Assembly: GCA_050575255.1 (NCBI GenBank)
Contig: JBNZDD010013638.1
Coordinates: forward strand, 1,991,767 to 2,055,766
DNA from: Harriotta raleighana
Taxonomy: Eukaryota
Direction of reading: 5' to 3'
Length of the DNA stretch: 64,000 nt
The stretch's first letter is position 1; every line of letters begins with the position of its first letter. The translations under genes were made by a program, and so were the position numbers. Below are positions 690-56,094 of this stretch, in pieces. The notes beneath the pieces are model-generated. The model was not told the origin of the DNA, made no database searches, and saw nothing but the letters and a program-made list of their open reading frames with translations.

Positions 690-1638
690 CCTCCATCCTT
701 GGCTCCAGGATCACGACTGTCTTGACAGAAAGTCTGTCAGACATCAAGTCCTGAATGAGAACTAACTTACTACAATTGAACATCAACAAAACTGAAGCCT
801 TTCCTGATTGGCTCACGTCAGCGTCTCCACACCTCAGTTGCTGACAGGATCACCATCCATGGAGCATATTCCATCTCACCAAGCCAGTCCGAAACCTTGC
901 CGTCTTCTTTGACCCTTATTTCTATCCAACATCCATGTCATGACCTGCTCTGCCTTCTTCCACCTCCACAAGATTGTCCAGCTCCACAATGCAGGCCACT
1001 GAAACTCTCATATGTGCATTCATTACATCCAGGCTTGGCCTTACAAACTTCTTGCTTGTCGGCCTTCCCAACTCCTTCCTCCACATGTTGCAGATCATCC
1101 AGGACTCTGTAGCCTGTGTTCTCTTCCCCCACTAGGCACCGTGAACATATCATCCCCACACTCGCCCGCCTCCACTGGCTTCCCATCATACAGAGGGTAC
1201 AGGTAAAGATCCTGGTTTTCACCTTCAAAACCCTCTTCAAAACCCTCCATGGCCTTGCACCTTCCTACTTGTGCGACTTCCTAACCGCCTACCAACCTGC
1301 CTGCTCCCTCTACTCAGCAGGAACCGACCTGCTTCATGTCCCCCTCCTCTCCCACTCCACCACTGGTGGGCAGGTCTTCAGCCACTCTGCCACCACCATC
1401 TGGAATTCCATCCTGCAATCCCTCCACCTCGCCCCATCCCTTGCCTCTTTCATGACCCATAGCGAGACCCTCCTCTTACACCGTGCTTTTGATCAAACTT
1501 CTTCGACTCTGTGCTTCATGCTCCCCAATCCCTATTTATTCCCTGCTTGGGTCCAAAATGTTGCCTCTCCAGCACCTTGGGACGTCATCCCGATGTGAAA
1601 ATGTGCTATATAAATGTAATTATATTGTTATATTATTA
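690..1638 (+). mobile_element. L2-clade LINE, 5'-truncated, frameshifted
   Basis: Remnant ORF2 C-terminus ([32 protein letters not shown]) followed by the L2 3' tail (cttgggacgtc...gctatataaatgtaattatattgtt). Confidence 0.88.
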
Positions 1639-1645
1639 GGCAATA

Positions 1646-2425
1646 CAGTTAACCCTCGTCGAACGCGACTCTATCGATTATGAATTCAAGTATACGCGAC
1701 GAAACAAAAGCATCACTTTTTTGTGCAGCCGCGTAAAACTTGTGTATATGCGCTGGCTGGACCCCGCGCACATACGCATGGGTGAGGACGCCGGCAGATC
1801 CCGACTAAAGACGATGATTCCTCGGCTGGCTGGCCCCGCGCACAATGCATTCTTGGGTAAATATAATAACTCTTTTGCCTCGGAGGGTCCTATGGCATAA
1901 TAAACAGAAGAGACAGAGAGAGAGTCTCCTAATAGTAATTTAGCCTAGCTGTTGTTTTATTGCTTTTTTTTATTGCTTTACTGCTTTGTTATCGCTTTAT
2001 ATAACAAAGCCGGCTGTAACCTTTCTGCGTCTCCCGTCCCGACCGCCAGTGGCTTTCTGCCCCCTGCCCGCCCCCGAGCGGCTCTCTGCTCCCCCACCCC
2101 CTCCCGCCCGCCGCTCTCCCCGATTTCTCTCTGCCTCCCTCCCAGGCTCCTCCTGATATGCCCACGTCCCGGGTGGTAGGAGAGACGAGAGGAAGAGGGG
2201 GAGGGGGAGCAACAAGAGCGGGGAGAGGCGGGCAGAGCGAGGTGCGAGCCAGCCACTTGCAGCCCGCCTCAGTATGTACCTTGCATTCGGATGTGCCTGG
2301 AGGCTTGAGATGTGTAGCCTGCGACTGGATTCCCCTAACCCCACTTTTTCCATTACTTGTTAAGCTTATCCAACTCAATTTTATTGAGTGCACAGTTTTC
2401 CAGGAACGTAACCCCCACGATTGCA
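1646..2425. mobile_element. Tc1/mariner (pogo/Tigger-like) non-autonomous DNA transposon
   Basis: TA followed by CAGTTAACCCTCGTCGAACGCG left end. Tigger-like right subterminal ccaggaacgtaacccccacga near 2400-2420. CpG-rich, internal direct repeat gctggctgg(a)ccccgcgcaca. The terminal part of the right TIR is missing. Confidence 0.6.
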
Positions 2426-3227
2426 AAATAACATTAGATGACATAGAACAGTATGTGATCTTTAGAGGGAAAATGGTACTTAAACGCTATTCTAGTTTAT
2501 TATATCCAGTTCAGAATTGAGTAGAACAAACGTTTTGACTGAATAATAAAAAAACTGAATTGTTAATATTCTATTCAATTCCAAAGTCTGCCCATTTGAT
2601 TTCATCAGTCAATGCTTCCCCCCCACCATTCCTCCCCCATTATTTTTCTTTTCCTGAAGGTAGTATTTCATGCTGGCAACCTAGCAGCACTCTGAAACCT
2701 CAGATATTGGCAAGTTAGTTGCCTCCAATGGTGTGAGTGGATAGACATGGAATCACAGCCAAGGCACAATCCTGTCCAACACCAAACTAATACAGACACA
2801 CACGCAAGCCTACCAAGAAACACACAGACACACGCACAGACGCACAAGCACACATACTCAGACATAGACAAGGACATATGCACAAACAACAACAAATTAC
2901 ATTTGTATTTTGCCTTTCACGTCAGGAAGATGTACCTTAGTGATGGGCACACAGACACACAAACAAATCTGCCCTACAAAATCTGGACTAAAATCACAGA
3001 CCTAGGGACACCCATGCCAAAGATTGAACCTGAAGCATTCCTAATCTATTTTGGTGGTTGGGGGGGTTGGGATCAGGGTCGATGGAGTGCAGAAAGAGTA
3101 GGAGAGTTGCTGAAGGCACGGTCAAAGAGGAGGGTCGTCTGGCATGTTTTGAAGGAGCTATGGGAAGGAGCAAGATGATGGGAATGTGGAAAGCTACAAA
3201 TGGTAGCTGTTACATTAAGATTATATT

Positions 3228-4205
3228 AACCACAACAACTTTGATTTATATAGCACCCTCCACGCCAGACGGCGTCTCTGAGCGCTTCACAATAGCAGAT
3301 CACAGGACCGAGCCTGGGGCAGGGGTAGAAAGATGACCAAAGGCGCGGTCGAAGAGAAAGGTATTCAGCTGGGACTTAAAACTGGAAAAAGAGGGGGCGA
3401 AGCGGAGGGAGTGAGGAAGGGAATTCCAGAGCCTCGGGGCATAGTGGCTGAAAGCACGGCCGCTGAGGGTGAAGTGGAGGATTCGGGGGACATGGAGGAG
3501 GCCAGACCTGGTGGAGCGAAGGCAACGGGTGCTGATTTGAGGACAGAGGAGGTCAGAGATAGGGGGATGCAGAGGAGTGGAGGGATTAGAAGATAAGGGT
3601 GAGGATCTTGAAATCAATCCTCTCTGGGATAGGGAGCCAGTGAAGTCTGGCAAGGACTGGGGTACTGGGAGCAAAGTTTGATGCAGGTGAGAATGGAAGC
3701 GGCAGAGTTTTGGATAAGTTGGACTCTGTGGATTGTGGAGGAGGTGAGACTGGTGAGGAGGGCATTGCAATAGTCCAGCCGAGAGGTGATAAAGGCGTGA
3801 ACAAGGTTTCAGCAGCTTTTGGGGTGAGGTATTGGCGGAGATAGGTGATCCGTCGAAGAAGACAGTGCTGGTGAGCGACCGGATGTGAGGGAGGAAGGAC
3901 AGTTGGGGGTCGAACCTGATACCTAGGTTGCGCACAGGTTCGGAGAGTTTTAGGGGCATACCGGGAAAGTGGAGGAGGTGAGAGCGAATGGAGACGTTGT
4001 CGAGAGCCAAAGAGTATGGGCTCCATCTTGTCAACATTCAACTGCAAGAAATTTGCACTCATCCAGCTCCTGATATCTGACAGGCAGGCTGACAGAACAT
4101 TAGGGGATTGGGGGTCGCAAAGTGAAATGGAGAAACAGAGCTGGATGTCATCCATACATAAGTGGAAGTGTGCTCCATGTGTGAGGATGACATTTCCAAG
4201 AGGAA
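3228..4205 (-). mobile_element. L2-clade LINE 3' portion
   Basis: RT motif remnant (Y)[77 protein letters not shown]; (TTG)n-type tail. Confidence 0.9.
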
Positions 4206-5741
4206 GTATATAGGATATATTGAGGTTAAAGACTTGCCCCTCTCATGTTTTCTGCCGCAGAACATTATTATAATGGAAGCATCTGTGGACAGGCTAGCGT
4301 TAGGGCAACTACTAAGCTGTATGAGCGGGCCAGCCCACAGCCAGAAGAAGTAACAGCTAGCAGCACCAGGTGCAACATAAGGCGATTATTTACCTTGCTC
4401 TTTCTAGAGGCAGGAGATAAACTTGTGCACACTACTTGGTGCCTCCGGAAATAGTGCCATTGTTGTCTCATTTACACTACACCATTACACTATAAACATG
4501 GCCTGAGTCCTATTTCCACCTCACAGAAAGTGGCCTTTGCCCAGAAGTTTATATCCAACGACCTGAATATCTTACAGCTACCCTGTAATGTTGCTGCATT
4601 CCATGATCATTGGCTGCTTGCACTGTGACTGCTGTTTAATACAGAGAAGTGAGCCAGACCATAACAACAACCTCTTATGTCCCTTTGCCAGATGGCCCTG
4701 CAGCGTTTGGTCTAAAAGAGGTAGAAAGCTTATGCCCTCATTCAATATTTGACATAAGCCATAAAAACCTCAGATTTACTAAGCAAAGAAAAATTCTAGG
4801 AAATGTAAATCTTGAGATTTAAACCCAAAATGACTCAAGGTTTTGTCAGTGCTCATTTTTCATTTCTCCTAATTAAGCAAACCATTCAATAAATCTCGAC
4901 ATAAGGAAACGCTCCTTCCGTTTCCTGAAAAAACAAAGTTTTTTGGATGCCTTTGGATGCCGTTAGAATGGATTGCAGTGTCAATAAATACAGCTCGATA
5001 GCAAGACATCTTGACATTTCCTAGATAGCCTAAACCAGTACATCACTGCACAGGAATGCACTGATTCACTCTTTTATAGGCACTTTCAGGAAACTATTCA
5101 TTGCAATGATGTTGAACCCTCGCCTCCCTTCACTAAATACTTATTAGCTATAGGGATCCTGATTAGTGTGACTTACAAAGCTGGTATGTACAATACATGA
5201 CAAATGAACAAAGGAGCATATGTAGGAGAAGCAGCCTGAAGCAACAGGTCTTCTCAGCAGGACAATGAATGAGCATAGGACTGAAGTTGGACAGCAAACT
5301 AAACCCTGTGAAGAAAGCAACAATTCTTAGGACCTTACTGCATTGGTGTTTTTTCCAAATCAAGCGACAACTCAACAACACAAGAACTTTGTTTTGGCAA
5401 CATAAAATGGATAAAATAATCTAAAGAATTGTGGCTGGAGATGAAAAAAAATGTAGATACTCAAAATCCTTTGAAGTGCTTCGTAGACGGATTTTATGTC
5501 TGTACGTTTCAGTGATTCAAACGGTGAAGGGTTGTGTGAAATGTGAATTGACAGAGACAGAGCCAGGGGATAGCAGGGGGCAGAGGAGGGAATGAATGGC
5601 CTATGGCAAAGGCTAATCATTCGCTGCCCAGCAGTTTGAATCATAGCTATTGGACACATTATATTGATTTAATAGCCTCTACAAAATGACTCTTTCCACC
5701 TTAAGTGTGTCCTCCCCATATTTTGCAAATATCCCAGAACC

Positions 5742-5983
5742 AAAAACACAAAATACTGCAGATGCTGGAAATCTGAAATAAAACAGAAATTGCTGGGAAC
5801 ACTCAGCAGATTAGACATCATCTATAGAGAAAGGAAATCGAGTCGATGTTTTGAGTCCATGACCCTTCATCAGAATTGGGGCATGTTGGAAGGACAAAGT
5901 ACTGATGAAGGGTCATGGATTCAAAGCTTTGATTCACTTTCCTTTCTCCATAGATACTGCCGGACCTGCTGATTTCTGTTTTA
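5742..5983. mobile_element. Foldback element, probably Penelope-like terminal-repeat derived, with hammerhead remnants
   Basis: Inverted arms around 5878-5897, each carrying CTGATGAAGGGTCATGGA. Same family as 14606-14817. Confidence 0.7.
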
Positions 5984-7075
5984 CCTCAATGACCCAGTTT
6001 GGAAGAAATTCCACCAGGATCTAGATTTACTCTTAAATACAAATGTAATTTTGTTGTTGTTGTTAAAAGTCTTATCTCTAAAGCAGTTTTTTGAAGTTGT
6101 TGAAAGAACTCACAGAAAACCAACTACAAAATGATGGCTGCATTTAAGAATTTGTCAAATTCTAGATGGTGTAAAATGCTACGTTAATAACGTAAATCTA
6201 GATCTGTGTTTTTTTTAATTTAATTCCCTGAAAAATCTTCTCTGATCACAATAATTCTTGCAAGTTTTCTTTTGTTACTAGCATATTCTGAGGTGAAACA
6301 AAACTGGTTTTGTGCAGAAATGCCAATAACTGAGAAAAGTACATGTAGGGTCAATGTCCACTACACACACTACCACTAAGGGTAAAGTGTTATCACAACA
6401 GATCTCTAGAGATAATTTTACTGCCATATTGTCATTGGCATTTCATACTGTCAATCCTGCTGGGCAAGTGCAAGTTGTTGTTGTTTCTCTAAAATTAATC
6501 CTTCTCGGTCTAGTATAAAGGCCTCTATTACTTCCACTGGTTATTGTGACCTTGTAGAATTTGGAAAAGAACAAAGAAAAGAAGGTTTGTTCCTCCTGGT
6601 GCTTTTTATCCAAACTACAAAAATTCAGCCCAAGGGAATTTATTTAATAAAATTACATTCTCCCACTCTGTGTCTCTGTCTGGATTTAAAAAGCAAAGCG
6701 GTGCGGGCAGAGCACACTTGTCTTTAAATCTGAAGACACAGTTGATAATGAATAGTATCAGCTAAAGCTGTTAATTACCCACTATGTAAAAGATACTTCC
6801 TGATCTCTGTCCTAAAATTGTACTGAACTAAATGCCATTTTGCTCTAGTGCCTTGACACAACTGAAAGTCCTGTTCATTTTTTCCGCCGCAATAGGACAT
6901 GGCCTTCAGCTGGAGACAGAATCACAAAGTACATCAGTAAATCTTCTCCAGTGGAGAACCCAACACATAGCACCTCCAAGAGCGGTTTTTGCACCAGGTA
7001 AAGGTAGAAGTTTTGACTAAAGATTTCACATACAAACACTTACATGAACCCAATGAGGAAAGGAAATAGGCTTGA

Positions 7076-7557
7076 GTCAGACTGGCTGAGTTGTTAGCAC
7101 TCCCACCTCAGTGAGAAGGTTACAGGTTCAAGCTTCATAATAATAATAATAATAATCCTTGCATTTGATATAGCGCTTTTCACATCTTATCAACGTCCCA
7201 AAGCGCTTCACAGAATATACTGTAACGTGAATTGACTGTATATTTGTGGGCAGAATGTTGGGAGTCTGAACCCATATCGTCAAGGCTGAGGCTCCTGACG
7301 CTCTCGTCAGCAAGTTGCGAGTTCAACCGCACAATGGGAATTTGAGCTCAACAATCCAGTGCAATGCATTGTTGAAGGTGATGGCCTTTGGATGAGACAT
7401 TAAATTGTCATCCGTGGGACTTTGCTGTGCATAAATTGGCTGCTACACTCACCTAGAAAACACAAAGTCACTACACCCTACAGTAAATTCCTGTAAAGCT
7501 CCTAGGAGATGTCATGACAATGTGATAAGAATTTATATCAGATATAAAGATTATTAA
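7076..7557 (+). mobile_element. Deu/Nin-domain tRNA-SINE interrupted by an antisense SINE tail (7137-7257)
   Basis: tRNA-like head, gaaggtg..ctttggatgagacattaaa core, L2-like tail. Confidence 0.7.
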
Positions 7558-8519
7558 TCATTCTTCATAATGTCTGCCACTCCTTCAATAGTGATAAGGA
7601 CAGATATTTTAAATTAGGAAACTCGCTCCAAATCAGGAATTAATCATCCTGTCTACTTCACATATCAAATAAAGCAACCACCATGCCCAATTCCCTATAA
7701 TCAATTTGATAATAATGAGGGGATTGTAAGAATGCCATGGAGAGACATTTGTATGTGAAAATAAGGATTAGGATTAGGCATGCACTGTGTTCACATCTCA
7801 AGCTTTCAAGAGGTCCCATTTATTCTCTGTTAAAAAAAATTCCTTTAAAATTCCCAATTTATAGTTCACGATAAAGCAATGACCTATCTAGGCCACAAAT
7901 GATCTTACATCCAACAATTAACTCTTTCCTGAGATGAGAGATTTCCAAACTAAAGATCACTGGAGTGGGAAGATCTGATCAGACTTTAGTATTAACATCA
8001 GTGCTTATATGATTTGGAAGTATGCATTGTGACTTGTGAAGAAAATAATACACATTATTTCCGAACGTTAGATTTTTCTAAATAAAGTCTCATGAAGCAG
8101 TGAGGCATGCTAATATACCACATATTGTGCACCACCTATAACTCGGGAAAGGGAACAACAAGAGCGTTGAAATCTGATACATCACTTTATTGCATTTCAG
8201 TCAGCCATGTGCCTGACACATGGGGAAACCCATCAGAGTCTCCAAACCAAACCTGACAGATCCATGTATCACATCGAAATTCCAAAGATATTTATTGGAA
8301 TGGAATGTGCACTGTCTCCTTGGAGGGAGGCATCCTGTTTACCTAATTCCGCAGAGTATTGGGCACAGGTTGGCAAGAACTGTGCCCTGAGGACCCCAGA
8401 GTGTGCGATAGGGCACGACTGAAGTCTATCTAACGGAAACTGCATAGATACCCATTGAAATGAGTCTGCATGCCCTCTTATCCTGCAGCTGCTTCCCATA
8501 TTCTCTATGTAGTTTTATT

Positions 8520-8960
8520 AGAACTTTACAGCTCCAAAGTAAGCCATTCACCCCATCGTATCTGTGCTGGATCTTTGAAAGAGCAATCTATTTGATTGTA
8601 TTTACATGCATTTTCCCCATCTCCCTGTAAATTATTCCACTTAAATATATATCTAGTTCGCTCTTGAAAACTAATGTGGATCCTGCATCGACTATTACTT
8701 CAAACAGGGCATTCTGCATATGTGTGTAAAACAATCCTTCTGGTGTCTTCCTTTGCTTATTATTTTAAATTGATGCCATCTAATCAATAATCCATTAACT
8801 TAGTGTAAATAATTTCTCCCTATCAAAACTATTAAATCCCCTCATAATTTTAAAGAGTTCAAGCAGAACTCCTCTCTATGTTCTCCATTCTCTGAAAAGA
8901 TTCTCCATTCTAATTTCTTCTCGTCTCTGCTCACAGGTTAAAACACTCATCCCTCGTTTC
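8520..8960 (-). mobile_element. CR1-like LINE 3' fragment, old
   Basis: Antisense of the CR1 tail motif (gccattc..ccatcgtatctgtgctgg..ctttgaaagagc) seen in sense at 12475-12600. Confidence 0.55.
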
Positions 8961-11095
8961 AGGGGTGAAACTGGGTTTTCAAAAGATTGAATTGTGTTTT
9001 TCTAGGAGAATGCCCTGAAAATATTTGAGTTAGGATTTTCTGTTTGTATTGGTGCTCACTCCTGCTATAAGTCTAACAAGATCTACATCTGCACCACAAT
9101 GTGGTAAGGATGAGCAAGCAGGTCAGGCTACACTCACCCTCCTAAAGTCCAAGTCTTTAATGTGGTTTCTTTGAGTCACTCACACACTCTGCTATTATCA
9201 TTTCACTTGCTGCAGTCTGCATCCGCTATGCACAGCTGCAATAGAGACGCCATCTGCCGTCTTCCTCAGGCCAGGAAATGCACTGGGATTGATGCCAAAA
9301 GCATCTTTGGTAACATGGAGTTATGATTTTTTCCATTTTTTGGAGGGTGGGAGAAGACCAAAGACTGCGAACTACAACGCTATTGTATTTTAAAAATGTC
9401 TTTACATTGCTTTCTTTTGATAATACAAAGCTATTGTTGCAAAGAAGTGAAAATAAATGCTATGTCTGGCTTTGAAATCCAAACCAAGGAAAACATGAAA
9501 GAAAGCACATCAAAGAACTTGCCCACCCCCACCACCACTTTCAAATTAAACCTGAGCACTCATGCTGAGAATGGTGTTTTCTTGTCTTGTCTCTATGACC
9601 AAATGGGTCCTTTATTTCAGTACAGCGACACTGACTGTTTTGAGTTATATCACCATCAACTTTTAGAAACACTGCGTAAGGGAGCAATTCTTACGAATTC
9701 TAGGGGGTTGATAAACCTAATATAGGGGAGTAAATCACACATCAGTTTAACATTAATAGGTCAAGCTTTTCCTGGCATTTTGTGATACTTACATATTCTG
9801 GCAAAGAAACAGATGAGCTGAAGCTTTCCAGTTTCAGAGAAATAATGGTCGTGCTTATGTCATAATGCAGCTTTGTTGTAATAGTCCAAGAATAAAACAT
9901 ATCAATCCAATTTGAGCTTCTGACCCTAACTGCGTCACAAATATTACATAATCCACATCATTGTAATAATGTCTGATTACTTGTATGCTAAGTTCAAGTA
10001 AAAAAAACCAACAAAGAAATTGCTTTGTGCAGTTTTTATGTTGATGCACAAGTAATTATTTTATTCAAAACTGAGATACTGAGGTAAAGGGGCCAAGACC
10101 CACACGGCTGAGCACCATCCCATTATGCAATTGGTTTAGCATTTGTGTACATAGTTGTCAGTAAAGTCATGGATTCACATGTCCAGTCTCTTTTAGCATT
10201 GAGTAAAGTACTTATTCAGCAATAATAATAATACTAATAATCCTTGCATTTGATACAGTGCTTTTCATATCTTCTAGACATCTCAAAATACTTCACAGAA
10301 TAGACTGGAAAGTGAATTGACTGTATATACTGTGTGTGGGTGAAACGATGATTCTAAAGGACTTCCACAGCATTTGTCTTAGATGTGAAGGTTTTCCATT
10401 TACAACGAAAGTCGGAGTTGAAGACAATGGGTTTCTAAATACATTTACAGAAGCCTTGCCATTCTCCCTTGTCTTGATTTTTAGATGGCATTGCAGAAAT
10501 GCCACTCACAGACAAGCCAGCATTAACAGCTTGAATGAGTACCTTGAATACTCGAGTACCGAGTACCTTGAGCAAATATCAGTACCTTACCAGAAAAAGA
10601 TGAGGGCAAAAGGAATGTACCAGATCAGACTGCAAAAATAACAGTTAATTCACAAATATGAGCATTAAATATTTAATTCGATGCTTGAGGTCCAAGTCCT
10701 TGGTCCCCTTTTCTACCTGACACTTATAAAAATTGTTGAGCATTTTAAGGCATTCAACTGGAAATATGTTATGCAGGTCAAATCATTATTAAGGTACCTG
10801 GTAATTCTTACAAGTGGCACTTTTTTTGATGAGGTTTAATGCTATAGCAACGCTCATGTCTTCATGTGAATCATAGGGAACTGCAATGCGCATTACATTA
10901 CATTACATTTGATCTTGTATGCCTAGTAACACCAACATTGAGTATATGCCTCTAAAATAGCCGAATGTGTCCATTCCCAGATTTCCATATCATCACTTGA
11001 TCTCAGAAAATCACTCTGCACAGTCTTTCAATTACTTTTCCTAATTACTGCACTTATTGTATATACCTAAAGAAAAGGCAATGGAAATGTTTTAC

Positions 11096-11191
11096 CTCTT
11101 TCGCACTGTGGGCCAGTAAATCCATACACACAGGCACAACGGTTAGGCCCAATGCACCGGCCACCATTCTGGCACCCATTTTCACAGACAG
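11096..11191 (-). CDS. fbn2: Fibrillin coding exon 5 (EGF-like 3); gene continues beyond the left edge
   Basis: 96 nt, gttgcAG|...|GTAAAA. Encodes [32 protein letters not shown]. The next expected exon (DYRTGPC, hybrid domain) was not found in 1-11095. Confidence 0.97.
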
Positions 11192-12474
11192 CTGCAACAC
11201 AAAGAGAAGTGTAAGTGCTTCACCATGACAAACAGTTAGGTCTGTAACACAATAATATTAATAATCCTTACATTTGATATAGCACCTTGTCACTTTTGTT
11301 GAGATGTCTCAAAGCGCTTCACGGGATACACTGTAAAGGTGGATTGACTGTGCATTGGGAGGAATGGTAGTTTCTAAACAGTGAAGGAGAGTAGAAAAGT
11401 CGGCTGAGGGAAGCACTTGGCACAGTGACAAAATATTCCGGAAAATGCCTCTGTGGGCTCCGCAGATGTTCACCTGCATCTAATTTTGTTAAAAGTGCTC
11501 CACTGAATCTACTGCACTGAAGTTTGTTTCCTTAGAATGGGTTTTATTGCAGAACCACACCATGCAATGTGTAACGACTATGGAGAATGAAATGGTTCTC
11601 TTGGAACCCCCAAGATACTAGGGTAATAGGAAAATTAAGTCAACTGAGGACAATATAAAACCACACGATAGTGGAATGTACTGTATATTTCCCAGTTGTT
11701 AGTTCTGAATTTCTGGATACCAGACAGGAGGAAACTATGGAGTGAAAATTACATTCAATGTAATATTTATCACATCAAATGGGTTGAAGCCAGTCCAGCT
11801 CCCTCTCCTCCAACCCCATCACCCATTCTCAGTTAGAAGGCAGAGTCTTCAGGATTTGTATAGCCTGCGGTATTTGGGCTATTGGCTCACAGATTGTGGC
11901 CTTTTATTATCGGTCAGCCGAACATAGGCTTTGAGAGCTTACTCAGAAGTGGAGATTCTGCTTACTCAGAAGTGAAGGTCCTGAGAAAGGCCACAGCCGA
12001 TGGCCACAAATCGAAGCCTGGCAGTCCAATCCCATGGACCAAGTTTCTCCAACTTCAGCAGTGAGACCCAGCTTCTTTCAGAATGCTCTCGGGGAGCATG
12101 GGAGTGGCTACCTTCAGCTCATTTAGGAGCGCGGGGGGGGGNGGGGGGGGGGGGGGGGGATTGCTATAGAAGCGTTAAGAGCAAATAAGATGATGCAAGG
12201 AGAAAAGTGGCAAATGCTCTTTGTTTTAGATATAAAGGTAAACACTATATCCCATTAGTGCTGAAATCATCAGCGGTCAATGCAGATTACGCTCACAAAC
12301 AGAATCATCTCAGTCTCTACGATTCTCATATTCAGCCATAGACTAGCACACAGCAACTGGGTTCATCGTATTTTTGGGTTAGGGAAGGGAAATGTAAGAT
12401 AAGATCTCATTCCTCACAGCTATTCAATGCCTTATTCTAGTATATGTGCATAGACAGTGTGACACCAACAGACA

Positions 12475-12600: not shown

Positions 12601-13073
12601 GTTAATAATAGCCGTTTGAAATTCAAAATTCCTTATGGTTTTAGCCTGCAGACCATTGTCCTAAGACATAAGATCATGCAAAATATTCGAAAATTCAATA
12701 AAGAGAGCATGTTAACACAGAATGTTGCAGGATATATTTTGAAAACATGGTTTACTCCATTGTTTTTTCCACAAACACCGTTCTAAGATTTTTAATAATG
12801 GAAATATTGAAATGAAATCATTAACTTATCCAAACAACTTTCATTCGTATAGTGCCCTTCATATAGGATAACATCTCAGAGTGCTCCCTAGACACGGCAG
12901 GGCCGTAGAGATAGACTTGGTGTTTCCAGGCATCATTTATAGACAGATTGAGACGGAGAGGTTGAGGAAGGCAGCGTGGTGTTGATGTGGGAAATATATG
13001 TATGGTGAATATACAAAAAGTCTGCATTTGCTGCACAGAGGAGCTGTGCAAGAGCTGAGGCTGGAGAAAGTCC

Positions 13074-13366
13074 TAATAATCCTTTTGATATTTTGATGTA
13101 GCACTTTTCATATCTTCTAGACATCTCAAAGCGCTTCACAGAATATACTGTAAAGTGAATTGACTTTATATGTGGGCAAAACACTGCAGCCAATTGTGCA
13201 CAGCAGTATCCCACAAACAGTCATGGTTGAAATGACCAATTTATTATTGGGGGTTTTTGAGGGATTATTATTAGGTGTGGAGTTAGGAAACTTGCCCAAG
13301 GTTTCACTCTGTCTGAGTTGAACCCAAGTCTTTCACTTGAGAGGCAAGTGCACTAACCATTGAGCG
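13074..13366 (-). mobile_element. tRNA-derived SINE (CORE-like body, L2 tail), adjacent to old L2 fragments 12830-13073
   Basis: Matches the abundant ~310 bp SINE in this window: head gctcaatggttagtgcac, cttgggcaagtttcc, (ATT)n tail. Confidence 0.8.
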
Positions 13367-13616: not shown

Positions 13617-14605
13617 CTGTAAAAGAAACAAGCCAGTCATATTTACAGCAGTAACAACAACAAGAAAATTACATTTGTATATAGCTATCATGTCGGGAGG
13701 ATGTACCAATGCGCTGGACAGTCAATGTTTCAGACCTGAGCTGTGATCAGGATCAGAGAGAGTGGAGGGAAAGTAAGAGATTTGGGATGACCAATGGGAT
13801 TATCAAAGAGGAGGGTTGGAAGTGGGATTTAAAGGAGGCTATGGAGGTGGGCGAGGTAGAGGGACTGCAGATAGACAGTTGTAGCCATAAATACGCTGAG
13901 AGAAAAAAAGCAATAATTTTAGTTTGATAAAAAGCAACATTGTGGGCATTATCTTAAAATGTGAACCAGATAACAGTACAAGATATCCCCATCATGACAC
14001 AGCTGGGGGTCCATAAAGTTAATAATCTTTGTTATCCTCAGCGCTCATGATACAGAGGCTGTTCCCGGGTTTCCAAGCTCACCACTGATGTAACTGATCC
14101 CTTTCGTTTGATCAGCAGGGTGTGCGACACATGCAGAAACCATTCAACATCCTTAAAGAGTGTCCAAATCAGATGAGAACTTCCATGTGTGTATGATACC
14201 TTCATATGGAAATGTCCCCTTGTCTGAAATGGAATTTGCATTCTCTCCCCTGCTTACCCACTTCAAGAGGACTATTAGGTACAAGCTAGCAAGAGCCAAA
14301 GCTTGGGGACCCCAAAGTCCATATTGGGGTACTGCTAGAGTTCAACCAGCGAAAACTGCATAGTTTGTCTTTGAGAGCACTCTCTGGCCTGCTTGAATAC
14401 CTAGGACCATGCTGACTGTTATTGTTGGCTTCCAGGGATTAGATGTCAATTTGCATAGTGCCCTTTGCATGGGGCAGCATCTTGCTGCAAGGAGCCAAGT
14501 GGAGCCCTGGGTAGTTTACACACGCTATCAAGCTGGGAAGCTCACCTCCACCTCTAACTCACCATGTTATCATGTTATATCTGAACCCATGGTATACTTT
14601 GGTGT

Positions 14606-14817
14606 AACAAAAACAGAAGTTGCTGGGAAAACTCAGCAGGTCAGGCAGCATCCATGGAAAAAGGAAAATGAGTCAACGTTTCAGGTCCACATCCCTTCGC
14701 AGTTCTGACGAACTGACTCACTTTCCTTTCTCCATGGATGCTGCCTGACCTGCTGAGTTTTCCCAGCAACTTCTGTTTTTGTTTCAGATTTCCAGCATCT
14801 GTAGTATTTTGTGTTTT
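14606..14817. mobile_element. Foldback element with 70 bp inverted repeat (Penelope-like end, hammerhead remnant)
   Basis: Arms 14606-14675 and 14714-14783 differ at 2 positions. Flanked by GTATACTTT at 14592-14600 and 14818-14826. Confidence 0.8.
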
Positions 14818-14999
14818 GTATACTTTAGCGCGTTGCCACAAGGCTGGATTGCACTAATTGTTTAATTCAATGTAATCCTGTTATTACAGAAGATTTAGGA
14901 TTGCACATTTTCAAATTCACAAATCTTTAGGTTCATTAATAAGATAAAGGAACCTTGGAGTTTTGTTTCACCCTCAACTGTCCTTTCTCCCCACATCTG

Positions 15000-21184: not shown

Positions 21185-21323
21185 TAATCTCAAATCTCGT
21201 CTGTATCGATGGAAAACTTTTTTTCCTATAAAATTTCTATCTTGATGATAATANTAATCTCAAATCTCGTCTGTATCGATGGAAAACTTTTTTTCCTATA
21301 AAAGTTCTATCTTGATGATAATA
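21185..21323. repeat. 69 bp direct duplication across a single N (21254)
   Basis: 21185-21253 equals 21255-21323 with one mismatch. Confidence 0.9.
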
Positions 21324-21749
21324 ATGATAATAATAATAATAATAAACTGGATGACCACATGCCTGGGTCTCTGGGCATTGTATGAATACCAACCTCTTCA
21401 AACACTTACTGGGTGTTCTGAATAATCCCACTTAAAGTCCCTTTGTAATGGATTGAACTGTATTGCTCTTATTTGTATGCTTTGGTTATTGGTGTACCAG
21501 TACCCACTTACTCGTTTGAAAGCAAGGGATGATTCCCCAAACGTCAGCAAATAATTGATTCTGGCGAGTGAGCACATCCAAATCTCTGCTGTACTGTATT
21601 GTAATGTTACTGACAGCTAAAAACCTCTTCCTCCTCCCCCCAATCCTCCCCCACCAAGATTCGAAACGAAAATGGGGTGAAACTGATTTCCAATTACAGT
21701 ACTCACACTTTACAGAGTCTTTCTTTTCCCCTTTCCCCTCTCGTCCAGG

Positions 21750-22655
21750 GATCAGTGGCTAGAACATTCGCTTTACAAGCCAGAGACCTGGGTTTGATTC
21801 CAGGCAGGGTGAAACCTTGAGCAAGTTTCCTTACTCCACACGCCTAATAATAATCCCTTGGGGGGGAAAAACACAATAATAAATTGGTCATTTTCAATCC
21901 ACGACTATTTGTGGGACACTGCTCTGCGCAATTGGCTGCCGTATGTCATCCACAAATACACAGTCAATTCACTTTGCGGTATATTCTGTCAAGCGCTTTG
22001 AGACATCCAGAAGACGTGAAAAGCGCTAGATCAAATGCAAGGATTATTATCATTAAGAAATTATTAGCAAACTCAGGTCCCTCATCTGCAAGCCGAGTGC
22101 TATTCCTATTGAGCTACAGGACTTCACAAGCAAACCTAATAAAAACCTTGGGCAAATTTTCTCTCTCCGCAAACCTCTACTTGTCAAGCAGTAAGTAGGA
22201 ATCCGGTTGTTAGTCGATTGGCAGATCTCTTTCTCGGGGTAATAGTCCCTCCAAGAAAAATGTGACTCAATCCACGACTGTTTGTGGAATACTGCTGTGC
22301 GCAACTGCCTGCTGCGTTTTCGCCCACAAAATACATAGTCCTGTAGCTCAATCGTTAGAGCACTCGCCGTACAAGCGTGAGACAAGCGTGTGTTTGAATC
22401 TAGGCAGATCAGGGCAAAAACTTGGACAAGTTTCCTTACTCCACACGCCTGATCATAATCCCTCCCAAAAAAACTACAATGATAAAATTGATCATTTTTC
22501 AATCAACGACTGTTTGTTGGACACTGCTGTGTGCAATTGGCTGCTGCGTTTTGCTCACAAATATACAGCAATTCACTTTACAGCATATTCTGTGAAACAC
22601 TTTGAGACGTCTAGAAGACTTGAAAAGCTTTAAATCAAAATTCAAGGATTATTAC
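21750..22655 (+). mobile_element. Three tandem tRNA-SINE copies (21750-22055, 22075-22335 longer variant, 22336-22655)
   Basis: Pol III A/B box-like heads (tagctcaatcgttagagc..gtttgaatc), cttgggcaagtttccttactcc body, tgcaaggattatt tails. Confidence 0.85.
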
Positions 22656-22836: not shown

Positions 22837-23972
22837 TTATAATAATAATCCTTGCATTTGCAGAATATACTGTAAAATGAATTGACTGTATATTTGTTGG
22901 CAAAACACAGCAGCCAACTGCGCAAGGCACAAACAGTCGTGGATTCAAATGACCAATTTCTTATACAGTAAAACCTTGTTTATCCATGACTTGAATAATC
23001 AGAAAACCCGTTCAACCACCATCTCAAAAAAAAGTCCTGATCCGACTAACCGGACATTATCCGGCGACACTTTGAATGTTGGGTCTAAACTTGTTCCAGG
23101 TCCTTTTAAAAGTCACGCTTTTTTACATTGTTCGAGTTTAGACCCGACATTCAACGCGTCGCTGGATAATTTCTGCCTGTCGTTGGGAAGTTAAGTACTG
23201 TATACATAATAAATACTGCTGCAGGTAGCAGCCAGAGAGAAGGGGTGGGGGGGGGCGCAGGATGGAGGGGAGGAAACGGAGAGAGAGGCGAGGGAATGGA
23301 GAGAAAGAGAGAGGGTGGGGGTAATGAGATATGGGGAAAGAGAGAGAGAGATAGGGGAAAGCATAATGGAGTGAGAGAGAGAGAGAAATGGCAAGTAGGT
23401 TGATGCAAAGAGAGAGAGAGGGAGGGAGAGAGAGGAAAGAGGCAGAGTGAGATTTGTAGACAGAATTTATATGATGGATTTAGACTGAATATCTTTGAGG
23501 GTCTGTGTATGTGTATGTCTGTCTGTCTGTCTGTGTGTGTGTGTGTCTGTCTGTGTGTGTGTGTCTGTGTGTGTGCTGGCCGTTAGGTCTAACTCGTTGC
23601 TTTTTAAAGTCATGTTTTTTACCTCCCGTCAAATCAGTGCGATTGCGAAGTTAAGTACAAATAATAGAATATTCTGTTATTATTTAGTCCATTATTAATA
23701 TAGTATGTGTTAAAATAAATGTAATTTATTTTTGAAAACATTATATTTAGAAAAAAAAATTAAAAATCTGTTCAATCGGAAAAAACGTTTAACCGCCACT
23801 GGCCAGGTCCCATGGGTGCCGGATAAATGGGGTTTTACTGTAGTTCTTTTGGTGGATTATTATTAGGCATGTGGAGTAGGAAACTTGCCCAAGTTTTCGC
23901 CCTGACTGGATTTGAACATAGGTCTCACAAGATCTTGTAAGGCGAGTGCTCTAACCACTGAGCTACAGGACT
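22837..23972 (-). mobile_element. tRNA-SINE split by a MITE (SINE parts 22837-22965 and 23841-23972)
   Basis: The two parts join into one colinear SINE ending in head gagtcctgtagctcagtggttagagcactcgccttacaag. Confidence 0.85.
22966..23840. mobile_element. Tc1/mariner (pogo/Tigger-like) MITE, 875 bp
   Basis: TIRs CAGTAAAACCTTGTTTATCC / GGATAAATGGGGTTTTACTG, TA on both sides, no ORF, internal (GA)n/(GT)n. Confidence 0.88.
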
Positions 23973-33900: not shown

Positions 33901-34159
33901 TGGCTTGATTAATTTCTCTAGAAAGTTCTCCTACACTGTATATACATATACTTATGTCTCAGCCTTCTCGACTATTTTGTGGATTCAAGTGTCGCAGTGG
34001 GACTTTGAACTCACAGTTCAGGCTTCAGTATAGTGTTGGGGATGCATAACATTCCTGGAAGTGCCATCATTTGGATAAGATGTTAAACCAACTTTCTGAC
34101 TGCTTGTTCAGGTGGACATTAAAGAGCCATGGCACTATTTGAAAAAAGAAAGGCATTTA

Positions 34160-34470
34160 ACAATAAGAATTCTTGAATTTGATATAGCTCTTTTCACGTC
34201 TTCTAGATGTCTCAAAGCGCTTCACAGAATATACTGTAAAGTGAATTGACTGTTTATTTGTGGGCGAAATGCGGCAGCCAATTGCACACAGCAGTGTCTC
34301 ACAAACAGTCGTGGATTGAAATGACTAATTTTATTATTATGGTTTCTTTGGAGGGATTATATTCGGCATGTGGAGTAAGGAAACTTTCCGAAGGTTTCAC
34401 CCTGACCCGCCTGGATTCGAACAAGGGTCTCACACTTGTAAGTCGAGTGCTTTAACCACTGAACTGCATT
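34160..34470 (-). mobile_element. Full-length tRNA-SINE inserted into a sense Deu-SINE (33985-34600)
   Basis: Complete head-body-tail. Flanks show the ttggataagatgttaaacca..caggtggacattaaagagccatggcactatttg core. Confidence 0.8.
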
Positions 34471-43671: not shown

Positions 43672-46600
43672 CACACTCATTCATGCCTTGCCCATCGGGA
43701 TATTGCCTCCCTTTTCTCTCTTACTTCCCTCTTACCCCCTTTCTCCCCATTTATCCCTGCTTTTGCCCCCCAGCCACCTTTCCCTCACTATTCCCCCTTG
43801 ACCCCCTTTCTCCCCCTTTTCTTCCCTGATTTTACCCCACCCACCTTTCCCTCCATCTCCCACCTTACCCTCTTTTCCCACTTTCTCCCCCAGCCCCACT
43901 TCCGTGACTGTTTGTAGGACACTGCTGTGCGCAATTTGGCTGCTGCGTTTCGCCCAAAATATACAGTCAATTTTTCCTACTTTCCTTCCCCCGACCCCTC
44001 CTCCACTGCTCTAGTTCCTACTTGATTGTACAGCACCTTGGGACGTCCTCCTGATGCTATATAAAGGCGCTATATAAATTTAATTTTGATTGATTGATTG
44101 TCTCCTCCAACACAGAGGTGATTTTCTTCCAACCCCCACACCGCCTTGTGCGGTGTTCCTCATGGGTCTGTCCTTGGTCCCCTCTTCTTCACCCTCTACA
44201 TGCTCCCTCTTGGTGACGACATCTGCAGACATGGGGTAAATTTCCACTTGTATGTGGATGACACCCAACTCTACCTTTCCGCTTCCACACTCAACTCCAG
44301 GACTTCTGGCATCCTGACAGCCTGCCTGTCTGACATTGAGTCCTGGACAAGAGACAACTTTCTCTAGTTGAACGTCAGTAAGACTGAGGCCCTGCTGATT
44401 GGCTTGTGTCAGCGCCTCCACACCTCAGGCACTGGCAGCATCAGAATCCATGGCTGCACACTCCACCTCATGAAGCCAGTCAGGAACCTGGGTGTCTTAT
44501 TTGACCCTGAACTATACTTTCTTCCGCACATCTGCTCCATGACTAGTACTGCCCTCTACCACCTCAGTAACATTGCCAAACTGCGATACTGCCTCATCCC
44601 TCAGCCTTGTCCATGCATTTGTCACATCAAGGCTTGACTGCAGAAACTCCCTCCTCATTGGCCTTCCTAGCTCTTCGCTCCACAAGCTGCAGATCATCCA
44701 AAACTCTGCAGCTCATGTCCTCCCCCACACTAGGCTCCGTGACCCCATCATTCCCACCCTCACCCAGCTCCATTGGCTCCCCATCCCCCCAGAGGATTGA
44801 ATTCAAGATCTTCGGCCTCACTTTCAAGGCCATCCACGGCCTTGCCTCTTCCTATCTCTTCAACCTGCTGACTCCCTACCAACCTGCCTGCCCCACTCCA
44901 TTCAGCGGGCTCCGGTCTGCTCCATGTCTCCCATCTGACCCGTCCTATCATTGGTGGCTGGACTTTTAGTCTCTCTGCCCAAACATTCTGGAAATCCATC
45001 CCACAGTCCCTTCACCTTGTTTCCTTCCTTGCCTCCTTCAAGACTGATCTCAAGACCCTCCTTTTCGATCATGCCTTCTGCCACCCTCCCACCTCTCTGC
45101 CTACCCCATACACTGTTCCTCCCCCATGCTTGGGTCCTGATCCCTGATTGTTCAGCGACTTGGGACGTGCTCCTGACGTGAAAGGCGCTCTATAAATGCA
45201 ATTTTGTGTTGTTGTTTGCTGTTGTGATGCTGGACTTCTTTGAAACTAAAGTCGAGGACATCTGCTCAGTTGCTTCTGCCGTTCTGACCACCAACTCCTC
45301 CCCATCTCCCCCTCACACCCCAGCCTCAACCATCCCTTCCTTCATACCTTTGACCCTCTCCTCTCTCATCACTACCATAACCCATTTCAAACCCACCAGC
45401 TGCACCTTCAATGTCACCCTTACCCCCCTCCTTACCTCACAGTTCCACCTCCTTTTTCCCTGTACTCATAGACATCATAAACCTCTCCCTGTCCACTGGC
45501 ACTGTTCCCACCTCTTTNCACACTCATTCATGCCTTGCCCATCGGGATATTGCCTCCCTTTTCTCTCTTACTTCCCTCTTACCCCCTTTCTCCCCATTTA
45601 TCCCTGCTTTTGCCCCCCAGCCACCTTTCCCTCACTATTCCCCCTTGACCCCCTTTCTCCCCCTTTTCTTCCCTGATTTTACCCCACCCACCTTTCCCTC
45701 CATCTCCCACCTTACCCTCTTTTCCCACTTTCTCCCCCGGCCCCACTTCCGTGACTGTTTGTAGGACACTGCTGTGCGCAATTTGGCTGCTGCGTTTCGC
45801 CCAAAATATACAGTCAATTTTTCCTACTTTCCTTCCCCCGACCCCTCCTCCACTGCTCTAGTTCCTACTTGATTGTACAGCACCTTGGGACGTCCTCCTG
45901 ATGCTATATAAAGGCGCTATATAAATTTAATTTTGATTGATTGATTGTCTCCTCCAACACAGAGGTGATTTTCTTCCAACCCCCACACCGCCTTGTGCGG
46001 TGTTCCTCATGGGTCTGTCCTTGGTCCCCTCTTCTTCACCCTCTACATGCTCCCTCTTGGTGACGACATCTGCAGACATGGGGTAAATTTCCACTTGTAT
46101 GTGGATGACACCCAACTCTACCTTTCCGCTTCCACACTCAACTCCAGGACTTCTGGCATCCTGACAGCCTGCCTGTCTGACATTGAGTCCTGGACAAGAG
46201 ACAACTTTCTCTAGTTGAACGTCAGTAAGACTGAGGCCCTGCTGATTGGCTTGTGTCAGCGCCTCCACACCTCAGGCACTGGCAGCATCAGAATCCATGG
46301 CTGCACACTCCACCTCATGAAGCCAGTCAGGAACCTGGGTGTCTTATTTGACCCTGAACTATACTTTCTTCCGCACATCTGCTCCATGACTAGTACTGCC
46401 CTCTACCACCTCAGTAACATTGCCAAACTGCGATACTGCCTCATCCCTCAGCCTTGTCCATGCATTTGTCACATCAAGGCTTGACTGCAGAAACTCCCTC
46501 CTCATTGGCCTTCCTAGCTCTTCGCTCCACAAGCTGCAGATCATCCAAAACTCTGCAGCTCATGTCCTCCCCCACACTAGGCTCCGTGACCCCATCATTC

Positions 46601-47364
46601 CCACCCTCACCCAGCTCCATTGGCTCCCCATCCCCCCAGAGGATTGAATTCAAGATCTTCGGCCTCACTTTCAAGGCCATCCACGGCCTTGCCTCTTCCT
46701 ATCTCTTCAACCTGCTGACTCCCTACCAACCTGCCTGCCCCACTCCATTCAGCGGGCTCCGGTCTGCTCCATGTCTCCCATCTGACCCGTCCTATCATTG
46801 GTGGCTGGACTTTTAGTCTCTCTGCCCAAACATTCTGGAAATCCATCCCACAGTCCCTTCACCTTGTTTCCTTCCTTGCCTCCTTCAAGACTGATCTCAA
46901 GACCCTCCTTTTCGATCATGCCTTCTGCCACCCTCCCACCTCTCTGCCTACCCCATACACTGTTCCTCCCCCATGCTTGGGTCCTGATCCCTGATTGTTC
47001 AGCGACTTGGGACGTGCTCCTGACGTGAAAGGCGCTCTATAAATGCAATTTTGTGTTGTTGTTTGCTGTTGTGATGCTGGACTTCTTTGAAACTAAAGTC
47101 GAGGACATCTGCTCAGTTGCTTCTGCCGTTCTGACCACCAACTCCTCCCCATCTCCCCCTCACACCCCAGCCTCAACCATCCCTTCCTTCATACCTTTGA
47201 CCCTCTCCTCTCTCATCACTACCATAACCCATTTCAAACCCACCAGCTGCACCTTCAATGTCACCCTTACCCCCCTCCTTACCTCACAGTTCCACCTCCT
47301 TTTTCCCTGTACTCATAGACATCATAAACCTCTCCCTGTCCACTGGCACTGTTCCCACCTCTTT
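43672..47364. repeat. 1846 bp near-identical tandem duplication across a single N (45518)
   Basis: 43672-45517 equals 45519-47364 at offset 1847, with identical ORF sets. One A/G difference noticed (43892 vs 45739). Confidence 0.95.
44100..45225 (+). mobile_element. L2 LINE RT C-terminal part and tail (second copy 45947-47072)
   Basis: GVPHGSVLGPLFFTLYMLPLG..FHLYVDDTQLYLS, VRNLGVLFD, AFVTSRLDCRNSLLIGLP, LHWLP; stops and frameshifts present. Confidence 0.92.
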
Positions 47365-48800: not shown

Positions 48801-50334
48801 GGCAGGAAGACATCCCACGCAGCTTTTCAGATTGTGATATCAATGGCAAGCTATACAATTTTAGTTGGTTAAATTCTAGCAGTACTGCAACTGTGGTGTC
48901 CCCCAAGATTTGGGTTTTGTCAACCTGCGTACAATACTTTCTGGAATTAGGTAAGCATGAATAGGAGTAGTCTCTCTATGGAGGGAATGTGCATTCCATT
49001 CCAACAATCTCTCTGGATTTTCCATGTGTAGATAGGATGCTTGGAAATTTCAGCTTGGTTTGGATACATGTAAGAAAATGAATCTGAAGAAAAACAAATT
49101 CTATTCAAAGGTTCCATTCACTAAGAATACTTTGAAGCAGCCTATGTTCTTGTTGGAATACGTCACACTTCACAGAGTGCAGAGAAGAGCAATACTGAGG
49201 TTAAAAATATGACATTAACTAAACAAAAATAAGTCACCAACATGGTGAAATGTTGATCATGGGCTGTTTCTCAGTTGAGAAAGGCAGAGGCTCGCTGACA
49301 GAAGATCAGAAAGCAAATCTCCTGCAGATAAATCCTTTGCCATCTTTCAGATTTGTGATGCATCTCTTTTTTAAGGAGATTTACTATTCAAATTTGTAAA
49401 CAAATCAAACAATTTCAGTCATAAAACATAATAATAATCTTTGCATTTGACACAACACCTTATCAGGTTGTCAAGATGTCCCAAAAAGCGCTTTCCAGAA
49501 TTCGACTATAAAGTCCAGTGAATATCTATTGTATTTTAGGTGAATACAGCAGTCAACTTGCATTTGGCAATATGTGTATGCCACACATATCCATCAACAA
49601 GCAGCACAGAGTGACTTACCCATTTCAACCTCAATAGTACTACTGGATTACCAACTCTCTCCACATCACATTCTTTAATCGTTACATATTAAAAAATTTA
49701 AGTATCTTTAAATTGAGTGCTGCTCCTTTCTTCCCAAACATAGAACATTACTGAGTTGCACTCGATATGGATTGGTCGCATGAAAAAGACATCTGATATT
49801 TTTATTTTGCGATGTGATTAACAGAATTTATGGAGACTCAAAAAGGTTTTTCAGGGGTGCTCCTGGGACTAGATTTACCAGCAAACATGAACTCATCTTA
49901 AAGTCTCATCAAAAAGACTGCAATGCAGGTTTTCTCCAATGTCTTAAGTGGATCTAAAGCCCACAAGCTTCTAAAGCCCACAGGCAAAGTGTGCTGGTAA
50001 CTGAGCCAAACTGACAAGCTAATCTCAAAATTTATGCATAACTACGAACCGTACCCTCAACTAGAAACTTATGCAAACAGTTAGCCTTAACAAATCCTCT
50101 TTCACAAGATGCACAGCCATTGACTAAACATGAACAGAGACATCACAACCCCCGCAGTCTCTGCACACAACTCCTTCTCAAGGCATCTCTGTATTTGCTA
50201 TGATTCTGGAAAAAAAATTGCATCAGCACATCTTCCAGGCAGTTTGTAACTCAAGAGTAAAATGAGATCTAGTGCTCTTTCAATGAAATAGCAAATTATT
50301 CGTGGGAATGTGAAGTAATGTTATTATTCTTGTA

Positions 50335-50610
50335 CTAATAATACCTTGCATTTAATATAGCGCTTTTCACATCTTCTAGACGTCTCGAAATGCTTCACAG
50401 AATATATTGTAAACTGAATTGACTGTACAGTATATTTGTGGGCGAAACGCGGCAGCCATTTGCGCACAAATGACCAATTGTTTTTTTGAGAGTTTATTAT
50501 TAGGCATGTGGAGTAAGGAAACTTGGCAAGGTTTTTCCCTGACCAGCCTGGATTCAAATACAGGTCTCACGCTTGTAAGCCAAGTGATCTAACCACTGAG
50601 CTACAGTACC
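50335..50610 (-). mobile_element. tRNA-SINE, near full length
   Basis: Head, cttgccaagtttccttactcc body and tail all present. Confidence 0.82.
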
Positions 50611-54812: not shown

Positions 54813-56094
54813 TAGGACTCCAACAAGTGGGAATTCTACTTCAATGCGCTTGGAAGATAATCACAGCAGAGCAATGTTCCCGCAGGTCAGCATGACCGAT
54901 AGTCAGTTGCCATGATGATACCAATATGACCATTATGGTTACCATTTACGATTCTTTATTAACCCAGTCTGGGAATATCACATTTTCATCACAAGTGTTT
55001 AAATTCCTGTTATCTATGGGTTTCAGATAGCTGTTCTCTATATGGGAATCCCATGGTCCTGATCTCTATTGCTACAGATATCAGGGGGTTTATAATGTTC
55101 GACATTTTGGAATTAAAACAAGAACATTGAGATAAAATTTAGAGTCACTTTCTTTTCAGTGGGGCCCCCCTGAAACATACTTTGCAGCTGGACCTAAAAT
55201 TCCTTAGTAATCGTTCAATATGTAGTTTATAGAAATCCAGATGCAAGCATAAGCCCGATCCAAGCATAATATTTCCTGGCAGACTAGCTATGTGCTTTTC
55301 ACAATTCAATTGTAAACTGCTGAATGCATTGCTTTCAAGATAATGAATGCTGCTGCCCATTTCAATGCATTTGAAGCCAGAACATTAGTGCTAATGCAGG
55401 AAGCTGGTTTTAACAATGCTTATCACTCCTAAAATAAATATTTGCATTTTGATATAGAGCTTTATTAAGTCAAAACATGTTGAAATCCTTCACTCAACTT
55501 TAGAAGTGTTGTTATGTTGGCAAATGTGGCAGTTGCTCCATGCCAGCAATATCCCAGAATCAGCAAAGAGATCAATGACCAATCTTTCAGCTGCTTGAGT
55601 AAGAGAGGAAGATTGACTAGATTGGAAAAACTGATTACTCTGTAGCCAAGGGCAGAGTCGACCTCAGTTTAACATCTCATCTAAAATAATCTAAATCACC
55701 TCTAACTGTACTGTATCCCTTCAACATTATAATAAATGTAAGCCTGTATATGGATCTCAAGTCCTGCGAACAGGATTTGAGATCCATATAAAGAACCTAC
55801 AGACTCTGAGAAAGAGAGCCACAATTCCTGAATTGTCATTCAATCCTCCAAATCGGGGTAATAGAAGACTGGTGAGGAAGGGTGAGACATTAAACCATGG
55901 CCCCATTCCCCTATTCTGACATGACATGATTCAAAAATAAGTTATTCCATTATCCTGGCCAATACAACAACAACAACTACAAAATTACATTAGTATAGCG
56001 CCTTTCACATCGGAAGGACGTCCCAAGGTGCTGAATACTTCCCATGTGAAGTGCTGTAGCTATACAAGTGTAATTTTGTTGTTGTTATTGTTGT

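Follow-up and report, generated by a model that had tools for sequence, protein, structure and literature searches.

The window, by which we mean the whole stretch of 64,000 nucleotides analysed here (Harriotta raleighana, contig JBNZDD010013638.1), carries on its minus strand a fibrillin gene (Pfam EGF_FBN_1st, E = 8.4e-14), presumably FBN2-like, five coding exons of which lie near positions 20332, 17930, 15400, 13600, and 11180; the motif of a sixth fibrillin coding exon was not found in the window. Beyond the fifth exon, in the direction of transcription, lies a foldback element at 5743-5988, hereafter copy A, with a length of ~246-251 bp depending on whether its left end is placed at 5743 or possibly at 5738. 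The placement of this element in fibrillin intron 5, proposed in an earlier interpretation made from the letters of the DNA (hereafter the sequence-only reading), is borne out by the count of coding exons, five of them upstream of copy A and none found after it in the window. A second member of the same family, a foldback of 215 bp hereafter called copy B, was found by BLAST and nhmmer searches of the window (87% over 103 nt) and is placed in the intron after fibrillin coding exon 3. The coordinates of the features are collected in Table 1.

Table 1. Features of the two foldback copies and of the neighbouring fibrillin exon (positions are those of the window).
Feature	Position	Strand	Remark
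Candidate target-site duplication, left, copy A	5728..5737	+	8/10 match to 5988-5997; weak
One-sided tail, 31 nt, copy A	5743..5773	-	may reach 5738; not on other arm
Left arm, copy A	5774..5897	-	inverted, 5'-truncated, pLTR-like terminal repeat; sense = fibrillin-transcribed strand
Decayed minimal hammerhead 1, copy A	5841..5877	-	7 changes vs read majority: 5845, 5847, 5852, 5854, 5860, 5869, 5876
Right arm, copy A	5898..5988	+	starts at hammerhead stem I 5' strand; no tail
Decayed minimal hammerhead 2, copy A	5898..5934	+	9 changes vs read majority: 5901, 5906, 5915, 5920, 5921, 5923, 5926, 5928, 5933
Candidate target-site duplication, right, copy A	5988..5997	+	
Reading frame with fibrillin coding exon 5 (EGF domain)	11070..11219	-	last fibrillin exon found upstream of copy A
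Target-site duplication, left, copy B	14592..14602	+	10/11 match to 14818-14828
Copy B	14603..14817	.	arms 14603-14702 and 14705-14786; 2-nt loop 14703-14704; tail 14787-14817
Target-site duplication, right, copy B	14818..14828	+	

The inverted arms of copy A pair over 71 nt with 80% complementarity (5803-5873 with 5902-5972) and over a further 17 nt at their outer ends (5774-5790 with 5972-5988), the complementarity of the arms overall being ~73-80%. The foldback described by the sequence-only reading is thus present, with inverted arms and a significant fold, and only its limits have to be moved, to 5743 (possibly 5738) on the left and to 5988 on the right; its inverted architecture also stands as far as the head-to-head arms are concerned, the foldback being asymmetric and bearing its 31-nt tail on one side. 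At the centre, the left arm continues ~20 nt beyond the hammerhead, and what looks like a spacer at 5878-5893 is family sequence, as three contig pieces from other copies, among those listed, continue to 5889-5893. The right arm shows a private deletion of ~14 nt after 5972, and its junction with the flank is not an assembly error, since a contig of run X1 spans 5931-6063 with 0 differences. The candidate target-site duplication of copy A, whose boundaries were picked after looking, is equalled by 1.9% of 20,000 random position pairs at a slop of +-1 and by 12.7% at wide slop. Run X5 includes a contig, from another organism, that matches the intron flank at 5501-5735 with 21 differences, its fit ending at 5735, just before copy A.

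The end of the arm, 5814-5773 on the minus strand, resembles a 3' splice site, with CAG at 5775-5773, a pyrimidine tract and a branch-like motif at 5814-5810. In both copies the tail-less arm ends one base short of the last G of this splice-like site, the tail coinciding with the would-be exon, and in copy A the site faces the fibrillin transcript; this arm end may be the terminus of a pLTR intron.

Each arm of copy A carries the remains of a minimal hammerhead ribozyme. The minus-strand reading of 5841-5877 given previously is correct to the letter, and the second core announced for the right arm is present, with nine changes compared to the seven of the first. A relaxed minimal-hammerhead descriptor (at most two core mismatches, stem II of at least 5 bp) has 5841-5877 as its single match in the window; of 200 first-order Markov sequences of equal size, 4 contain a match, a chance rate of 2% that is optimistic because the descriptor was written after the site had been seen; the exact core pattern has 0 matches in the window, as expected of decayed copies. 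The Rfam hammerhead models, which had been suggested as a check, were run on the window copies and returned nothing at E <= 10 in 4000-8000 or 5825-5895, and nothing at gathering score across the window. Hammerhead 1 is broken by G12>A and G16.2>A. The two CpG sites that the sequence-only reading had restored by reversing G>A changes were restored rightly, as is confirmed within the window by the halves of copy B and by the read majority described below; the decay is more extensive than the two changes then recognised, all four CpG sites being hit in each arm, G12 among them. G12 is described as the general base of the hammerhead (PMC6155905), and the cores of copy A are regarded as dead because G12>A is found in both arms, which agrees with the earlier view of this copy as inactive; all four cores of the window, those of copies A and B together, are broken.

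Copy B is also a foldback (fold z = -17.7), whose left arm retains the 3' half of the core at 14682-14671 on the minus strand (GAAAC, GUU and the stem I strand) and whose right arm retains the 5' half at 14701-14712 (CUGACGA plus A), stem II being deleted. The 31-nt tail is the same as in copy A and is again found at one end only; the tail-less end point is identical in the two copies (5988 in A, 14603 in B), and the other arm is 31 nt longer (to 5743 and to 14817, respectively). The centres differ, copy B having its arms joined by a 2-nt loop located at the stem I 5' strand and copy A being asymmetric by 20 nt. The target-site duplication of copy B is 11 bp long with one mismatch, and 0.025% of 20,000 random pairs are as good. 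At 14734-14793 (+) a 10-bp stem formed by the tail of copy B with the arm encloses two small hairpins (z = -1.9; 13/200 shuffles as good), a possible, if weak, candidate for a cis signal.

The extent of the family was assessed in four public runs aligned on 5500-6250 at 80% likeness, namely X7 and X8, which come from one sample, and the contig sets X1 and X5. The depth in X7 rises from ~2.6 in the left flank to 1,290-11,370 over the element; relative to the flank, the depth of the element is 500-4,411x in X7 and 126-1,065x in X8, ratios that depend on noisy flank baselines (2.6 and 5.4) and that count only reads within 80% of the decayed copy A. The copy number of the family can safely be put at hundreds to thousands. 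Along the element, the depth in X7 drops from ~11,400 at the outer end to ~1,300-1,500 at the centre, partly owing to the divergence of copy A there. The family end at 5743 is sharp, 3,647 X7 reads continuing from it into dissimilar, A-rich sequence (agreement 0.41); a read break at 5780 was set aside as a tail boundary, copy A having a 1-nt indel there, and joints to 5972 were discarded as family junctions, being explained by the private deletion of copy A. The contigs show many arm lengths and differing junctions; many of the read joints sit at private mutations of copy A and are possibly alignment drop-offs. Two other repeated pieces lie to the right of copy A, at 6020-6071 and 6124-6201, with raised X7 depth (up to ~940 and 145).

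Two sets of reads, those whose alignment breaks off before 5929 (2,541 in X7; 1,168 in X8), with a consensus colinear with 5899-5928, and those whose alignment breaks off after 5837 (2,127; 1,005), have majorities that match and are mutually complementary. The read majority is an intact minimal hammerhead, comprising CUGACGA, an extra A9.1, a Watson-Crick stem II of 5 bp, GAAA, C-G, U17, and a stem I of 4 bp; in the family, stem II is GGGUC/GACCC with a 3-nt loop, closed by G10.1-C11.1, stem I is AGUU/GACU, and the C-G at 15.2-16.2 is palindromic. At single sites in X7, with the strands summed, the reads depart from copy A at 5845 (G>A, 2362/2453), 5854 (A>G, 1954/2277), and 5876 (T>C, 817/1013) in the left core, and at 5901 (A>T, 722/754), 5926 (G>A, 2587/2769), and 5933 (T>C, 5774/6498) in the right core; the change at 5845 gives the family a GUU triplet in place of the GUC cleavage triplet that had been read from copy A. 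The CpG sites are not among the single-site rows listed, and their restoration rests on the loose-end majorities (agreement 0.58-0.69) together with copy B; the change at 5869 in hammerhead 1 was derived from the read consensus of the other arm. Stem variants across the four arms and the majority letters are those of decay, with no compensatory pair seen.

The RNA of copy A folds at -109.6 kcal/mol (z = -10.2; 0/200 shuffles as good), and, taken singly, the arms show no advantage over shuffles (z +1.0, -1.9, +0.1, +0.6). On the transcribed strand, the probability of stem II in the foldback of copy A is 0.00000, and with the sense core forced to form the energy is -72.5 instead of -104.0 kcal/mol, a cost of 31.5 kcal/mol; the foldback hairpin is therefore predicted to hide the sense core. 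The opposed cores cannot dimerise in cis, because a given transcript contains just one of them in ribozyme sense, and this one is paired with the other arm, so that the dimer cleavage suggested previously does not apply between them. With its core buried in the predicted hairpin and deprived of a cis partner, the insertion would have spared the fibrillin pre-mRNA even when new.

No open reading frame combining reverse transcriptase (RT) and GIY-YIG was found by Pfam in the window among 129 + 6 of the 155 open stretches of at least 78 aa, the scan leaving out 10 duplicate stretches in a doubled block and the 10 shortest; in the 129, two matches were obtained and no GIY-YIG, with one RVT_1 fragment far off in another repeat. 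This fragment, at 45969-46211 (+) with a duplicate at 44122-44364 (E = 2.2e-8), belongs to a dispersed LINE-like repeat, which we take to be of the L2/CR1 type, and is not linked to the foldback. The doubled block itself, 1,846 bp at 99.95% identity (43672-45517 and 45519-47364), flanks a single N at 45518 and is probably an assembly join artefact, as is, probably, a 74-bp near-duplicate (96%; 21185-21258 and 21255-21328) around an N at 21254. The window further contains more than 20 pieces of an abundant SINE-like family of ~300 bp (e.g., 7129-7258, 13070-13365, 21744-22067, 34158-34468, and 50332-50609), one of which is overlapped by a marginal Rfam tRNA match at 23897-23972 (29.9 bits) where ARAGORN finds none, and two more small inverted repeats at 55744-55793 and 55963-56095 (84% over 50 nt; 73% over 137 nt), neither of which matches the foldback family.

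Among the collections searched, viral_contigs gave 0 pattern matches and 0 protein-guided loci, and genome_contigs, phages, and plasmids gave no match; six loci in metagenome_contigs, all GC-rich and matching over 21-23 nt only, were rejected as chance. Protein searches for a Penelope-like element (PLE) reading frame with a read-through of 80 aa, and with longer and near lengths, returned 0 matches; with a read-through of 34 aa, 1.84 billion representatives yielded a single match, to an unnamed JGI/IMG product of 71 aa, which has the look of a related repeat translated spuriously and was discarded.

Copy A is likely to be an old, inactive PLE insertion, in which only the 3' end of the pLTR is present, twice and head to head, the RT having stopped near the hammerhead and then folded back. 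There is good support for the repeat behaving as a PLE terminal repeat does: both copies in the window (2/2) are head-to-head and 5'-truncated, both (2/2) carry the 31-nt tail at one end, and the duplication is strong in copy B and weak in copy A; that it is such a repeat is probable, on the grounds of its anatomy and motif. In the proposed sequence of events, an autonomous partner would supply the RT and the GIY-YIG endonuclease to nick the intron and copy an RNA ending in the pLTR; synthesis would halt at or just past the hammerhead and fold back or switch strand, giving two 5'-truncated arms; resolution would leave the 31-nt tail on one arm and a target-site duplication of 10-11 bp; finally, CpG decay plus other changes would break both cores. 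The parent element would be a PLE whose hammerhead, a core that we infer to be catalytically active in its family form, processes tandem sense transcripts as a dimer, according to the published model; in the foldback copy, the hammerhead would be left with no cis partner and buried in the hairpin.

We favour inversions that arise separately with every insertion, rather than a palindromic master of fixed form, because the junctions of copies A and B differ, keeping in mind that nearly equal arms ending at the hammerhead in both copies would also be expected of such a master. The family proposed by the sequence-only reading is accordingly accepted as high-copy and non-coding, with a type I minimal hammerhead intact in the read majority, and doubted as to its one fixed inverted architecture, since the A and B junctions differ and the contig arms vary in length. 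The account nearest to that earlier reading supposes a self-propagating, non-autonomous PLE derivative, whose foldbacks are transcribed from palindromic masters and re-inserted in trans, the antisense arm silencing the ribozyme and keeping the RNA whole. It would explain why the arms of both copies in the window (2/2), each of them a foldback, end at the hammerhead or close to it, and it has precedents in Adineta, where pLTR sequence is reported to be enough by itself for trans-mobilisation (PMC3846280), and in the pLTR-derived non-autonomous retrozymes described in vertebrates (10.64898/2026.07.22.740005). We nevertheless rate it as unlikely: the two junctions are unlike, the read depth falls from the outer end to the centre (partly through the divergence of copy A), the contig arms are of many lengths, and a near-perfect duplex of 100 bp would make a poor template.

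The size of ~250 bp, the palindromic arrangement, the lack of coding capacity and the high copy number would suit a palindromic MITE moved by a cut-and-paste DNA transposon, the hammerhead likeness being then accidental or that of a passenger, and palindromic DNA-class repeats of such size are known from frog Harbinger (PMC5625713); this origin is very unlikely, in that the ends are not mirror images, the 31-nt tail being one-sided in both copies, the lengths are not uniform (~246-251 and 215 bp) and come with different centres and varied arms, and the read majority conforms to the PLE minimal-hammerhead consensus in all its boxes, stem II being perfect. Domestication by the host, as a regulatory hairpin, small-RNA precursor or splicing element of the fibrillin pre-mRNA, to which one might be led by the stable hairpin on the transcribed strand, by weak Rfam miRNA-precursor matches and by the acceptor-like sequence on the sense strand at 5775-5773, is hardly credible for a copy that has drifted from its family at CpG and other sites and whose arms are ~73-80% complementary, the miRNA matches being all far under gathering score and generic to long hairpins.

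A further and rather doubtful proposal is that the fold-back point is not random and is set by the 5' boundary of the ribozyme. Three cases are at hand of an arm starting at the stem I 5' strand, namely copy A (5898), copy B (where the fold-back on the loop at 14703-14704 is perfect) and one X5 contig (joint 5765 to 5929). If such a hotspot held over thousands of copies, the hammerhead fold or a hairpin at its edge would be both the stop site of the RT and the site of self-priming; the family would amount to an extensive natural archive of self-priming in Penelope retrotransposition, a step proposed and undemonstrated, and might possibly spread in the form of foldback units, in each of which the antisense arm keeps the ribozyme silent.

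As it stands, the locus is a piece of ordinary genome archaeology, a probable dead PLE-type insertion devoid of an ORF. The minimal-hammerhead family is extended to a lineage that is not among the examined rows of the 2014 survey (PMC4209133), and a ribozyme proves recoverable from copies that are decayed and escape Rfam. With inversion junctions numbering in the thousands, the self-priming model of PLE integration could be put to a direct test. Intronic foldbacks are, moreover, ready-made long double-stranded RNA; by analogy with the frog, where palindromic repeats are reported as heavy ADAR targets, and with the lizard, where Penelope is given as the most edited LINE-class repeat (PMC5625713), the family may supply substrates for A-to-I editing in its host.

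The kind of element and its arrangement are already known for PLEs, and the literature searched contains no account of this particular repeat family, which, itself or through relatives, may be contained in Repbase/Dfam or in the supplements of the 2026 preprint. The PLE minimal hammerheads are described by Cervera & de la Pena 2014 as having no real stem III and a short stem I and as occurring in thousands of mostly solitary copies (PMC4209133), their consensus showing CUGANGAH, an extra base before stem II, G10.1-C11.1, a palindromic 15.2-16.2 and a common U17 (PMC4209133, Fig. S3). The read majority of the family agrees with it in the core boxes, A9.1, G10.1-C11.1, the palindromic 15.2-16.2, U17 and the short stem I, so that, with its PLE-like anatomy, the likeness to PLE hammerheads perceived at the outset is upheld; copy B shows the core boxes by halves and both cores of copy A depart from them (G12>A). 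The Rfam hammerhead families have the same catalytic boxes, but the window copies give no Rfam match. Cartilaginous fish are absent among the rows of Fig. S3 examined (PMC4209133). The same survey notes pairs of minimal hammerheads on opposite strands, 100-700 bp apart, such pairs being reported in Schistosoma and Cotesia PLEs, whereas the opposed cores described here are only ~20 nt (copy A) or 2 nt (copy B) apart; sense-tandem PLE hammerheads are reported to cleave as dimers, weakly in vitro (PMC4209133, PMC6765202).

The closest structural parallel is provided by inverted pLTR insertions of EN+ PLEs, for which an inverted 5'-truncated copy and a tail of 30-40 bp at one end (Craig et al. 2021, PMC8557442), and a 31-bp tail, duplications of 8-10 bp and palindromic head-to-head junctions that were interpreted as self-priming (Arkhipova, Yushenova & Rodriguez 2013, PMC3846280), have been described; inverted pLTRs are elsewhere treated as peculiarities of individual PLE copies (PMC8969392). 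The foldbacks resemble these insertions in the head-to-head pLTR, the one-end tail, the short duplication, and the palindromic junction (PMC3846280, PMC8557442); in the EN+ PLE examples drawn there, the ORF persists in whole or in part between the repeats, whereas here both arms are cut within ~100-125 bp of the 3' end and nothing of an ORF is left. With the non-LTR retrozymes (Li, Clavereau & Pollet 2026, 10.64898/2026.07.22.740005; Cervera & de la Pena 2020), tandems of which are reported in one chondrichthyan (10.64898/2026.07.22.740005), the family shares its non-coding nature, a type I hammerhead and the relation to pLTRs; those retrozymes are head-to-tail tandems whose hammerheads can dimerise, whereas both copies in the window are dispersed head-to-head foldbacks with opposed cores.
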